A stretch of 64,000 nucleotides of DNA from a virus. Lineage: Duplodnaviria; Caudoviricetes. The DNA lies in the IMG/VR virus record IMGVR_UViG_3300044448_008243, positions 1 to 64,000 of that record. One strand, given 5' to 3'. How positions within the stretch are numbered: the first letter of the stretch is position 1; each line of letters begins with the position of its first letter. Below the pieces are notes generated by a model. The model ran no database searches, had not been told where the DNA came from, and was given only the letters and a program-made list of their open reading frames with translations. This document shows, piece by piece, positions 82-26,426 of this stretch. A program made the position numbers and the translations under genes.

Positions 82-560
82 AAATAGCAAAATCTAGATT
101 AAAAGAAATAATCAACGAAGAATACAAAGCTGTTTTGTCAGAGCAAGAATTGAAAACCGTTGGTGATTTAAGGGCAGTATTGCAGAAAATTCAACTTGCT
201 AAAAAAACGGGAGACGTAAAAGACGTTGCTAAGGATTTTGCTGTGGACATGGTAATGGATGCCATTCCGGGAGCAGCAACGGCAAAAGGTCTAGCTGGTC
301 TTGTAAAATCCTTGTGGGATCCTAGTGGAGATCAGCCAGAAAAGAAAACTGGTTCTAGTTTGGATAAGCTACAAATAGACCCCGAAGTTTCAAAAATAGT
401 TGATGATACGGTAGAGGACAACTTTATTAAAACTATAAGCAAAGAACTTGAGAGTGCGGATGATAGTATGCCCTTAACAAACCTAGATATGACCATGGCG
501 TTGCAAAAATATATTTCAGGTGAATACGATAGAAGATCAGTTTCTACACCGGAGAACTAA
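78..560 (+). CDS. Hypothetical phage protein with N-terminal MKIAKSRLKEIINEE motif (probable head/internal protein)
   Basis: ORF track; N-terminal peptide shared with several neighbouring ORFs. Confidence 0.75.
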   Translation: MKIAKSRLKEIINEEYKAVLSEQELKTVGDLRAVLQKIQLAKKTGDVKDVAKDFAVDMVMDAIPGAATAKGLAGLVKSLWDPSGDQPEKKTGSSLDKLQIDPEVSKIVDDTVEDNFIKTISKELESADDSMPLTNLDMTMALQKYISGEYDRRSVSTPEN

Positions 561-17163: not shown

Positions 17164-17442
17164 TTAGCTCCTTTCCTTTAATTTTACAAGAGTTTTTAGT
17201 GTTTTGTTAAGGTCTATTTTGTGGACATCATCGCAGCGATAATATTTGGGGATAAAGTGATTTTTGTCTTCTGATCTTAGCTTGGCTTTCCACCTTTGGG
17301 ATGTAACATATTTCTCATCGTCAATCCAATCAATCTTAGCCCAAAGCCAGCCGTCTCCTTTAAAATTTTCTTTAACTTCTTCAACTTTACCATAGCGATG
17401 CAATCCGCCATAGTTTTGGAAAACTATATCATTTACCTTCAT
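17164..17442 (-). CDS. Hypothetical protein
   Basis: ORF track; stop abuts the tRNA-Asn 5' end. Confidence 0.65.
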   Translation of the reverse strand: MKVNDIVFQNYGGLHRYGKVEEVKENFKGDGWLWAKIDWIDDEKYVTSQRWKAKLRSEDKNHFIPKYYRCDDVHKIDLNKTLKTLVKLKERS

Positions 17443-18575
17443 TCCTTCTCCATCTTATTTGCTGTAACCGGTTCAAAAAGAACCACAAGATCCATAGAGG
17501 GGGTAGAATAATAAGCACCAAGGTAATTTTTATGTATTGCTTTAAAAAGCTCAGTCCATTCAATATCATTTCTAAAACCATAAGTAGGGTGCCTAATAGA
17601 TTTCATAATTCCTTCAGGATCGCTTTTTATACTATACAGCTGATTTGTAGGAATGTCAAGAGAAAAAAGATGCTTTCCTTGCTTAACTTGGCTTTCTGCT
17701 TGGTCAAGGTTGACATAAAAGAATGAACGAGGATATGTTGATCTTTCCTTTTCTCTTCTGGAATATCTTTGTTTTCCAAACTGTGAAGGGTCAACTTGTA
17801 TTTTATCAGCTTCAACTGGAGCGTAGTGATAAAGGGTGACTTTGCCGTTATCATCATAGGCAGACAAGTCTGCTTCGTTTAGATTGTACACCATGTGCAT
17901 CTCGTTGATTTCTCTATCAACTCTCTGTGCTATTAGTTTTGCTGCTTGCCTTTGTTTTCCGGGCAGATCTTCGTAAGTTTTTGTCTCTTCGTCTTCTTTC
18001 ATAACAAAGGGCCGCCCACTAACACGAGACATAAATTCGCCTGTTTCGCCGCCCATAAACTTGCCAACAGTTTCTTTTTGGTCTAAGCCGGGGTACTTCC
18101 CTTTGTTTGTGCCGTAAATGTAACCTTCTTCACCTTTTGGAACGAGAATAACTGAATCTTGACAATATCTTTTACCAAGATTGATTATTTCTTCAAAGAA
18201 ATGCGGGTCGTCTTTTAGGTTAGTTACAAAGAAACTGGCTTCTTTAACCTCTCTTGGTACTTTTTCTGGGTCAATAGATCCAAAGTTCTCAATATAAGAG
18301 CCTTGAATGTTTTTAACACCGTAGCCCTGACTAAGAAGGAAAGCTGAGAGTTCTTTATTGTTTCTTTTATTAGTTTCGCCTCTTTTTCCCATCTTGTCTC
18401 TCTCGGAGAGTTCTTCTTCGGATGGAGGCATATAAACGCACATAGATTTGTCATTTATATCGCCACGAAATGCTGTGATGAAGGCAGTATCGTAGTCAGA
18501 CATATCTTGTCTAATTTTATTTAAGCCTGCTTCATTGATAAGAAATTTTTGCCAGTTTTTGTGTGGATTGTTCAT
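17439..18575 (-). CDS. Two-module phage protein (DUF3293-like N-terminal domain plus a second module)
   Basis: AFITAFRG..NKEL..L..GY...QGSY..E.SFFV..QDSVI; second module starts after YNLNE. Confidence 0.5.
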   Translation of the reverse strand: MNNPHKNWQKFLINEAGLNKIRQDMSDYDTAFITAFRGDINDKSMCVYMPPSEEELSERDKMGKRGETNKRNNKELSAFLLSQGYGVKNIQGSYIENFGSIDPEKVPREVKEASFFVTNLKDDPHFFEEIINLGKRYCQDSVILVPKGEEGYIYGTNKGKYPGLDQKETVGKFMGGETGEFMSRVSGRPFVMKEDEETKTYEDLPGKQRQAAKLIAQRVDREINEMHMVYNLNEADLSAYDDNGKVTLYHYAPVEADKIQVDPSQFGKQRYSRREKERSTYPRSFFYVNLDQAESQVKQGKHLFSLDIPTNQLYSIKSDPEGIMKSIRHPTYGFRNDIEWTELFKAIHKNYLGAYYSTPSMDLVVLFEPVTANKMEKE

Positions 18576-18606: not shown

Positions 18607-18931
18607 TGGTGGAGGTGGGGGGAATCGAACCCCCGTCCTAAATAACTCTGCTAATGAGTCGTTCACAAGGTTAGTCTGTAAAATACTAGAAAATAACACA
18701 GACAATTTATTTTCCATAAGCCTGCTTTCGCACCACTCATTTTTAGGAAATGAGAAACCATATGCCATTTTGGTTTAGAAGGTATGGCTACCCCCGATTA
18801 CGCAGCTAGTGCGTATTCAGAGTAAGTGTCAGTATTTGCACTTATAAGTTTCAGCGTTTTTACAGAGACCGTCGCTGCCCTCTGCCTTGCACACATTAGT
18901 TTCACTACCCAGTCGAAACCTGTACACCCCC
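18607..18931 (-). ncRNA. ssrA: tmRNA; tag peptide ANTDTYSEYALAA (18798-18839)
   Basis: 5' GGGGGTGTACAGGTTTCGAC, 3' GGTTCGATTCCCCCCACCTCCACCA; acceptor stem with G3:U wobble; tag ORF ending ALAA-stop. Confidence 0.95.
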
Positions 18932-18940
18932 ATATTTCAA

Positions 18941-19105
18941 AGAACTTCGCCCCCTCGCCATCCTAAGCAAACGAGGGGGCATCGTTAAAAAGCGAACGGA
19001 TACTCGCAGAGCCGTCGTGCTATCCCTTCTTCAATATTTATCCCCTTCGTTAAGGGCATGGAAGGTTAACCTACTTGTTATTTAGATAACGCCTTTCAAC
19101 TTCCT
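18941..19105 (-). ncRNA. Candidate structured ncRNA of unknown family upstream of tmRNA
   Basis: GC-rich non-coding stretch with four or more hairpins, starting at the predicted +1 of a sigma70 promoter. Confidence 0.5.
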
Positions 19106-19112
19106 AATCATA

Positions 19113-19140
19113 ACTATACAGGTTTCTGAGATTATGTCAA
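19113..19140 (-). promoter_or_regulatory. sigma70 promoter for the candidate ncRNA/tmRNA transcript
   Basis: TTGACA (19135-19140), 16 nt, TATAGT (19113-19118). Confidence 0.65.
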
Positions 19141-19481
19141 TCAGTTTCTTCAAAAAAACCTATTGTATTATATTTTTTCAACAAGTTGTCCATTTTATCA
19201 ACATCCATTCCAATCAAATTTGCGGCATCAACTTTAGTTCTACAAACTGAGATAGCTGTTTTCAATACAGCATCTCTTACTATGAAAGGTATTGATTTCC
19301 AAATAGGAATGCCAAATAATTTGCCACTTACAGGTCTGCTGGAGATTTCTAGTTTTAATGCGATCAAATCTTCCAATGGCAGATTAGAAACGAATATTTC
19401 CATTTCTTCAGGCAACTTTCCTTCTTTCCTCAACTTCCTAATAATACTATAACTTTTCTTCTTTTTTGAATCTTTTTTCAT
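19137..19481 (-). CDS. Hypothetical protein with possible C-terminal Fis-type HTH
   Basis: AVLKTAISVCRTKVDAANLIGMDVDKMDNLLKKY. Confidence 0.5.
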   Translation of the reverse strand: MKKDSKKKKSYSIIRKLRKEGKLPEEMEIFVSNLPLEDLIALKLEISSRPVSGKLFGIPIWKSIPFIVRDAVLKTAISVCRTKVDAANLIGMDVDKMDNLLKKYNTIGFFEETD

Positions 19482-26309: not shown

Positions 26310-26338
26310 TTGACAAAACTTAAACATCACAATATAAT
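26310..26338 (+). promoter_or_regulatory. Consensus sigma70 promoter
   Basis: TTGACA (26310-26315), 17 nt, TATAAT (26333-26338). Confidence 0.85.
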
Positions 26339-26349
26339 ATTATATATTA

Positions 26350-26426
26350 GGACCTCTAGCTCAGTTGGTTAGAGCACACCGCTCATAACGGTTAGGTCCT
26401 CGGTTCGAGTCCGAGGGGGTCCACCA
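26350..26426 (+). tRNA. tRNA with CAT anticodon, most likely Ile2 (lysidine type)
   Basis: GGACCTC/GGGGTCC + A + CCA; loop CTCATAA; C4-G69 and C5-G68 (E. coli TilS determinants); lacks the initiator mismatch. Confidence 0.85.

Follow-up and report, generated by a model that had tools for sequence, protein, structure and literature searches.

An uncatalogued, covarying leader domain and a predicted rRNA-type boxA between the promoter and the tmRNA gene of uncultured marine phages

What separates a strong promoter from the tmRNA gene that it faces across roughly 175 nucleotides (18932-19106, minus strand) was the question raised by one locus in the stretch of phage DNA analysed here (64,000 nucleotides, hereafter the window), which is part of a 72-kb virus record. 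A preliminary description of this DNA had placed a non-coding, GC-rich RNA between a sigma70 promoter and a tmRNA, and in these respects it was borne out. The interval was non-coding and the GC content over 18900-19049 was 0.51-0.53 as opposed to 0.22-0.30 in nearby gaps. The promoter was kept in all 26 relatives of the window type described below, its TTGACA containing, as TGA, the stop codon of the gene upstream, and the tmRNA was identified by two programs. The features that frame the leader are as follows.

19137-19481, minus strand: gene for a 114-aa protein that looks Fis-like, always directly upstream of the promoter.
19140-19113, minus strand: promoter TTGACA-16-TATAGT, matching the consensus at 11 of 12 positions.
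18607-18931, minus strand: phage tmRNA (ARAGORN; Rfam RF00023, 140.7 bits) with tag ANTDTYSEYALAA, the first gene behind the leader.

The 177-nt leader strand folded better than shuffled sequences (z of -2.65, with 2 of 200 shuffles reaching an equal value). The most plausible account of the interval is that it forms the transcribed 5' leader of an operon in which the phage groups untranslated RNAs with early genes, among them the tmRNA, a 378-aa gene and tRNA-Asn. A leader of this length is peculiar to the tmRNA operon, since the tRNA-Met at 26310-26350 (plus strand), which has its own promoter (TTGACA-17-TATAAT), has a leader of only about 4 nt. Metatranscriptome contigs covered the tmRNA only and were uninformative on transcription of the leader; one of these contigs ended at 18931, a weak hint of the processed 5' end of the tmRNA. 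The 378-aa gene directly after the tmRNA (17439-18575, minus strand) gave a weak Pfam match to PF23780 over residues 66-174 (31 bits, cut-off 28), the S-adenosylmethionine lyase family, to which the anti-restriction, SAM-degrading enzyme of phage T3 belongs.

Relatives of the leader were gathered by neighbouring-protein and pattern searches, which yielded 5 viral contigs and 21 metagenome contigs, mostly marine, while a scan of viral sequences with a bare GC hairpin pattern returned unrelated hairpins only. The resulting alignment (A2) held 26 distinct leader sequences of the window type from uncultured marine phages, and the domain defined below was aligned for the window type as A3. Neither the 114-aa protein nor the leader RNA was found in deposited phage genomes, and the phage belongs to a marine lineage without a cultured relative. 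Counts of paired changes in these sequences revealed covarying pairs in two helices, 5 of 11 pairs in a long-range helix (P1) and 4 pairs in a hairpin nearer the tmRNA (T2). Every wobble pair in T2 was G.U on the tmRNA strand, which indicates that selection acts on the sense RNA. The leader is firmly a real, selected, structured RNA of the tmRNA strand and, as firmly, a composite, in which an uncatalogued domain closed by P1 is followed by a hairpin-boxA signal of known kind. The earlier proposal of a novel structured RNA accordingly stands for the domain of about 115 nt, which has no Rfam match, but not for the 3' third of the leader, where a hairpin and an rrn-type boxA make up a known kind of antitermination signal. 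The elements of the domain are these.

18984-19100, minus strand: domain of ~115 nt closed by helix P1, from covariation.
19090-19100, minus strand: 5' strand of P1, GUUGAAAGGCG, starting ~6 nt after the predicted transcription start.
18984-18994, minus strand: 3' strand of P1, CGCUUUUUAAC, which pairs with GUUGAAAGGCG.
19077-19090, minus strand: P2, a small variable hairpin, GUUAU-CUAA-AUAAC, from folding.
19044-19065, minus strand: helix a, CCUUC (19065-19061) with GAAGG (19048-19044), its 12-nt loop holding CCCUU; invariant in the window type.
19024-19056, minus strand: helix b, a proposed pseudoknot between loop CCCUU (19056-19052) and AAGGG (19028-19024), from homology with a wider family.
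18995-19016, minus strand: P4 hairpin, GACGG (19016-19012) with CCGUU (18999-18995), its loop holding GCGAG; invariant in the window type.

Helix P1, which the preliminary description had overlooked, was proposed unprompted by RNAalifold as a long-range pairing. In A3, 98.8% of its cells were paired and the 5 covarying pairs were changed on both sides, one of them being CG in 12 sequences and UA in 11. The covariation score was reached by no shuffle, slid controls collapsed, and P1 was present in the unconstrained minimum free energy fold of nearly all types. The earlier pairing of GTTAT with ATAAC was recovered as P2, a region that varied greatly in length and sequence among relatives. In types of the 5' domain other than that of the window, an extra covarying helix of 6-9 bp (P0) surrounded the 5' strand of P1; the window type is without P0. 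The long GGAAG/CTTCC stem that had been drawn in this region was given up, being absent from the other types of 5' domain and carrying an uncompensated G>A change in two relatives (L250 and L260).

Conservation of a small peptide gene, either the 24-codon ORF MPLTKG... pointed out in the preliminary description or another, is the explanation that these alignments treat most harshly. An ATG-to-stop frame is indeed present at 19059-18985, but only 8 of the 26 sequences kept the ATG and only 3 the full frame, the frame was broken by a 13-nt hairpin insertion in L228 and L266, and substitutions followed the pattern of a base-paired RNA. The alignment refutes this reading, to which we attach practically no probability.

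The remaining helices were invariant within the window type, and part of their assignment depends on comparison with more distant leaders. A stem of CCCTT with AAGGG had been described previously. The window-type columns, being invariant, do not tell the possible partners of CCCUU apart, and comparison with the wider family favours the second AAGGG (19028-19024), with which CCCUU would probably form the pseudoknot of helix b, over the adjacent AAGGG (19047-19043), with which a nested pairing is possible. A conserved AAAUAUUGAA lies between the strands of helix b and UAGC comes after it. The earlier ACGG/CCGT stem corresponds to P4, whereas its inner CTC/GAG pairing was not conserved. The 3' strand of P4 abuts the 3' strand of P1, so that P4 stacks on P1 with zero nucleotides between. 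An intrinsic terminator made up of a hairpin and U-run (18987-19016) was rejected because the U-run serves as the 3' strand of P1, where its bases covary with those opposite; a terminator-like prediction at 19007-18992 rested on an inner stem that is not kept in L250.

As the preliminary description had said, the RNA is not recognisable as 6S, SRP, RNase P, Y RNA or a common riboswitch: Rfam 15, searched at the gathering threshold and at E<=10, gave no match in the leader (18932-19108). Searches with the covariance model of the window type (R1) found the domain once per phage record, with no further copy in four phage records, and did not find it in 86 other phage tmRNA loci. Matches below or just above threshold to RF04321, a model of permuted tmRNA, were noted at 18798-18992 of the window (minus strand) and at 1788-1958 of L432. 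These matches join the upstream hairpin or tRNA to the 5' half of a true one-piece tmRNA and are probably artefacts of the layout of the model.

Further leader loci came to light behind divergent homologs of the 114-aa gene. Some of these (such as L400 and L409) consisted of promoter, small hairpin, boxA and tmRNA, the domain being absent. In others (L402 and L406) the leader was larger and its core read ACCUUC-AAU-GGCUCU-NNU-GAAGG ... AUAUUGAAAG-GAGCC-UAGC; downstream of the core came a hairpin and the 3' strand of a closing helix, then a U-run and boxA. A scan of viral sequences with this core added 19 more distinct sequences. The slot was the same throughout this wider family, with the Fis-like gene, a promoter overlapping the end of that gene and then the domain, downstream of which lay either tRNA-Gly(UCC) followed by tmRNA, tmRNA alone or a nucleotidyltransferase-like gene. 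The promoter was kept as TTGAC-N17-TA...T even where the overlapping codons differed. Rfam 15 gave no match to the domain in six wider-family loci at E<=0.1, and RF04321 matches at such loci leaned on the neighbouring true tmRNA or tRNA.

Pair counts in the wider family (alignment A6) supplied the covariation for helices that are invariant in the window type. Thus, the fifth pair of helix a, CUUC/GAAG, was CG in 6, GC in 5, AU in 4, GU in 2 and UA in 1, and the variable pair of the pseudoknot, which joins loop GGCUC(U)N to N'GAGCC, was CG in 7, GC in 7 and AU in 5 and unpaired in none. All 8 pairs of P4 showed double changes while its loop kept G(U/C)GAA(A/G)A. P1 was always present, its sequence being wholly different between lineages. 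In shape, helices a and b make a compact H-type pseudoknot: the first loop spans 3 nt, the second stem has 6 bp and the third loop is A-rich. Between P1 and tRNA-Gly of L413-L431, the length of a T-run ranged from 6 T to some 20 T in contigs otherwise nearly identical, which may reflect polymerase slippage or an assembly effect.

Several features connect the domain of the window to this family. Common to both are the genomic slot, after the Fis-like gene and overlapping promoter and at the head of a tRNA/tmRNA operon, and an architecture with shared words (ACCUUC.AUG, GAAGG, AUAUUGAA and UAGC) and with P4 abutting the 3' strand of P1. L402 was intermediate in sequence between the two. A covariance model built from the wider family only (R2) did not match the element of the window at E<=1 in a search of the whole window; locally, its best match (9.9 bits, E 0.005 in 351 nt) coincided exactly with helix a and the UAUUGAA word. 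Conversely, R1 scored L402 at 10.5 bits (E 4) at the right spot. The statistical link between the window type and the GGCUC/GAGCC family is thus weak, and the pseudoknot of the window is treated as probable. The best explanation of the module at 18984-19100 is membership in an uncatalogued family of phage leader RNAs, in which P1 encloses a variable arm, an H-type pseudoknot (helices a and b with an A-rich third loop) and P4 stacked on P1. The unpaired nucleotides of this module were highly conserved.

The 3' part of the leader holds two elements.

18949-18980, minus strand: hairpin T2, GC-rich, GCCCCCUCGUU with GGCGAGGGGGC, 11 pairs, 100% paired.
18935-18945, minus strand: predicted boxA, GUUCUUUGAAA, lying 168 nt after the -10 element and ending 3 nt before the 5' end of the tmRNA.

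The perfect 9-bp hairpin reported earlier at the position of T2 (GCCCCCTCG/CGAGGGGGC) is real and extends to 11 bp, with double changes at the 4 covarying pairs noted above. In divergent relatives T2 was absent, and P1 itself or a small hairpin preceded boxA. A CsrA-type GGA loop in T2 was considered and set aside as the loop is not conserved. The word at 18945-18935, overlooked in the preliminary description, begins 3 nt downstream of this covarying hairpin. It is predicted to be an rRNA-type boxA (GTTCTTTGAAA), that is, a loading site for NusB/S10. Compared with the gamma-proteobacterial boxA consensus GYTCTTTAANA (PMC5725501), GTTCTTTGAAA has one difference, A8G, and in two other phyla it is this A8G variant that stands before 16S and in the spacer. 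The word (G)(T/A)TCTTTGA(A/C)A was noted at the same place before the tmRNA in many unrelated phage contigs. Other readings of TCTTTGAAA, as a Bacteroidota -7 element, an extended -10, a sigma-32 -35 element or a T4 late promoter, and as one strand of a leader-trailer pairing or of a pairing with the D-loop region of the tmRNA, were dropped once the word was recognised as a boxA; no complement of the boxA word was found in trailers.

The classical positions of boxA are before the 16S gene and in the 16S-23S spacer. The survey of bacterial genomes places it in addition immediately before ssrA in many phyla. In at least 120 genomes (L271-L390), TCTTTGA(C/A)A was found 5-8 nt upstream of the point at which mature ssrA begins, in a transcribed leader downstream of ssrA's own promoters, the phyla including Phycisphaerae, Dependentiae, Myxococcota, Bdellovibrionota, Balneolaceae and Bipolaricaulota. 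Of three such genomes inspected, two carried the word again about 90-100 nt before 16S and in the 16S-23S spacer. No description of boxA before ssrA was found in the literature searched, and the main study of non-rRNA boxA targets excluded non-coding RNAs (PMC5725501). By its position, as in rrn leaders, T2 may be called "boxB-like", a label that is only an analogy because an excess of structure in the 40 nt before boxA over a control stretch was not significant among 115 bacterial ssrA leaders (p 0.15 in a crude test).

The relationship of the domain to the tmRNA and to boxA was evident from loci in which one or another of these was missing. That P1 directly precedes boxA, in place of the hairpin, in L402, L418, L419 and L434 indicates that domain and boxA belong to one leader. 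Compact relatives lacked boxA altogether, so the domain does not need boxA, and L400 and L409, with a tmRNA but without the domain, indicate that tmRNA expression does not need the domain. In a marine contig, L265, promoter, full leader domain and T2 were present (148-400, plus strand) and the tmRNA was absent. P1 of L265 carries compensatory pairs of its own, the core and T2 are also kept, and the leader runs directly into a homolog of the 378-aa gene, with only a degenerate boxA-like word, GCTCTGTAAGA, left before it. This looks like a clean loss of the tmRNA, and since the domain was kept, the domain is not simply a tmRNA accessory. This contig, together with relatives in which tRNA-Gly or a protein gene follows the homologous domain, shows that the element is not tmRNA-specific. 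The domain is firmly concluded to be maintained independently of the tmRNA and of boxA. In a further contig (L266, 3018-3049, plus strand), the tmRNA was internally deleted, with GGGGGT joined to the T-arm and CCA end; it looks deleted between two GGGGGTTCGA repeats and, lying at the end of the contig, the deletion is possibly an assembly artefact.

A leader that serves processing or stability only, for example by protecting the 5' end of the primary transcript or by aiding the folding of the RNase P substrate, would have no specific partner. Such a role would suit a position at the extreme 5' end of the transcript and an element dispensable in relatives that still have a tmRNA, but an invariant pseudoknot, conserved loop bases and four helices compensated across divergent phages would be superfluous for it, and we regard it as improbable.

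The same loci bear on a second reading, in which the domain is a stable small RNA that is transcribed from its own strong promoter together with the tRNA or tmRNA, is released by RNase P or ended at a U-run and acts in trans on a host or phage protein. The tRNA cluster of phage T4 includes co-transcribed stable RNAs of unknown function, with which such an RNA would be comparable. P1 brings the two ends of the domain together by pairing, a feature shared by many stable RNAs; the tRNA of compact relatives begins 3-18 nt after P1, where cleavage by RNase P would leave an RNA of about 120-130 nt; and a U-run comes right after P1 in about half of the relatives. Strong conservation of the loops across divergent phages and survival of the domain where the tmRNA was lost are also in line with a trans-acting RNA. 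Against it, the domain of L422 and L424 lies directly before a protein gene, like a 5' UTR, a terminator common to all members is absent and the U-run of the window is paired within P1. We hold a stable RNA possible but doubtful.

The reading that we prefer, tentatively and with a probability of about 0.4, is that the domain binds a protein and, as a leader, influences the transcription complex that made it before RNase P cuts it off. Host RNA polymerase would start at the strong promoter, and the domain would fold first and offer a docking site to a protein, acting on the very complex that transcribes it, much as lambda nut boxB, HK022 put or EAR RNAs do. This docking is the weakest step, any contact of the domain with polymerase or a protein being a guess from its position. 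BoxA would then load NusB/S10 with other Nus factors, and polymerase would pass the untranslated tmRNA and continue onward without Rho-dependent or premature termination, as in known rrn antitermination, from which this step is carried over by sequence identity only. Finally, RNase P would cut at the 5' end of the tmRNA and free a leader RNA of about 175 nt with ends protected by P1 and T2. Such a release, already proposed in the preliminary description, is reasonable to expect, whereas the results gave no support to the antitoxin or decoy role suggested there.

Both likenesses and differences were noted between the phage leader and the systems after which this protein-binding leader is modelled. 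The rrn antiterminator is a complex of Nus factors (NusA/B/E/G), SuhB and S4. In rrn leaders the order of sites is boxB, boxA, boxC (PMC10250234). Like an rrn leader, the phage leader has a strong promoter, a hairpin and a boxA a few nucleotides before a long untranslated structured RNA, and its boxA word is shared by rrn leaders and spacers in bacteria whose ssrA it also precedes. Unlike an rrn leader, it precedes a tmRNA rather than rRNA, has no identified boxC and inserts between promoter and hairpin a pseudoknotted domain of about 115 nt that is unknown from rrn leaders. Lambda nut, HK022 put and the EAR RNA of Bacillus subtilis are cis-acting RNAs that make polymerase resistant to termination. 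The phage domain resembles them as a promoter-proximal structured RNA heading a long phage operon, and lambda likewise combines such an RNA with boxA; where the P4 loop reads G(U/C)GAAGA, it contains GAAGA, presumably that of lambda nutL boxB. In contrast with these RNAs, to which similarity in sequence or by covariance model was lacking, the phage domain is closed by P1 and contains a pseudoknot, and in contrast with lambda no N-like protein was identified.

The compact pseudoknot invites comparison with another class of RNAs, namely the SAM-II/V, preQ1 and guanidine-III riboswitches, with which the domain shares a first loop of 3 nt that spans a second stem of 6 bp, a third loop rich in A and unpaired bases that do not vary. 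If the domain were a riboswitch or another attenuator controlled by a ligand or protein, the pseudoknot would be the sensor, and P1 with the U-run, or T2, would be the terminator that decides access to the tmRNA and later genes. The closing helix around such a core is aptamer-like, a U-run follows P1 in several relatives, the covarying P0 around the 5' strand of P1 in the non-window types could be a switch, and T2 might offer its 5' arm as a pairing partner for AACGAAGGGG of the core. P0 is absent in the window type, however, and the pairing of AACGAAGGGG with the T2 arm as an antiterminator was uncompensated in the L248 lineage, where the T2 arm has changed. The linker between P1 and T2 varied from 2 to 25 nt and was not conserved, and the downstream genes (tRNA, tmRNA, nucleotidyltransferase) have no common metabolic theme. 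Unlike the named riboswitches, the domain had no Rfam riboswitch match, has its pseudoknot embedded in a larger P1-closed structure and is without a conserved expression platform or a shared downstream pathway. Control by a ligand or attenuation is therefore considered unlikely.

To return to a protein-binding leader that acts on transcription, the strong covariation, the compact pseudoknot and the invariant loops mark out an RNA family for which catalogues list no relative. RNAs of this sort generally have a specific binding partner, which makes the domain a defined candidate for a new RNA that regulates expression or modifies polymerase. A more far-reaching and speculative idea is that P1-closed pseudoknotted domains constitute a new class of promoter-proximal RNA with which a widespread lineage of uncultured marine phages reprograms, where its tRNA/tmRNA operon starts, the polymerase or some other conserved machinery of the host. 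Such a class would be put/nut-like or ligand-sensing, would have no described relative and might work with the Fis-like protein of the phage.

The adjacent gene extends the likeness to bacterial stable-RNA operons. Fis activates rRNA and tRNA promoters in E. coli, and a phage Fis beside a stable-RNA promoter would parallel that activation. By eye, the 114-aa protein has a lysine-rich N-terminus and a Fis/NtrC-like C-terminus with the motif ...EAA.FLG....F..LLKKY... An AlphaFold model (pLDDT 71.6) compared with the PDB by Foldseek gave Fis structures for all of the top 20 or so matches (probability up to 0.97, TM 0.5-0.57) with E-values of only 0.2-2, which are non-significant, and on this model the protein looks Fis-like; sequence searches of Pfam, PHROGs and the PDB gave no match. 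A Fis-like gene in this position suggests that the unit as a whole imitates the bacterial way of driving stable-RNA operons and, together with the consensus promoter and the host rRNA-type boxA, that these phages follow the bacterial stable-RNA recipe for translation RNAs of their own. The protein had 150 homologs, two of which carry the JGI name of an NtrC-family regulator.
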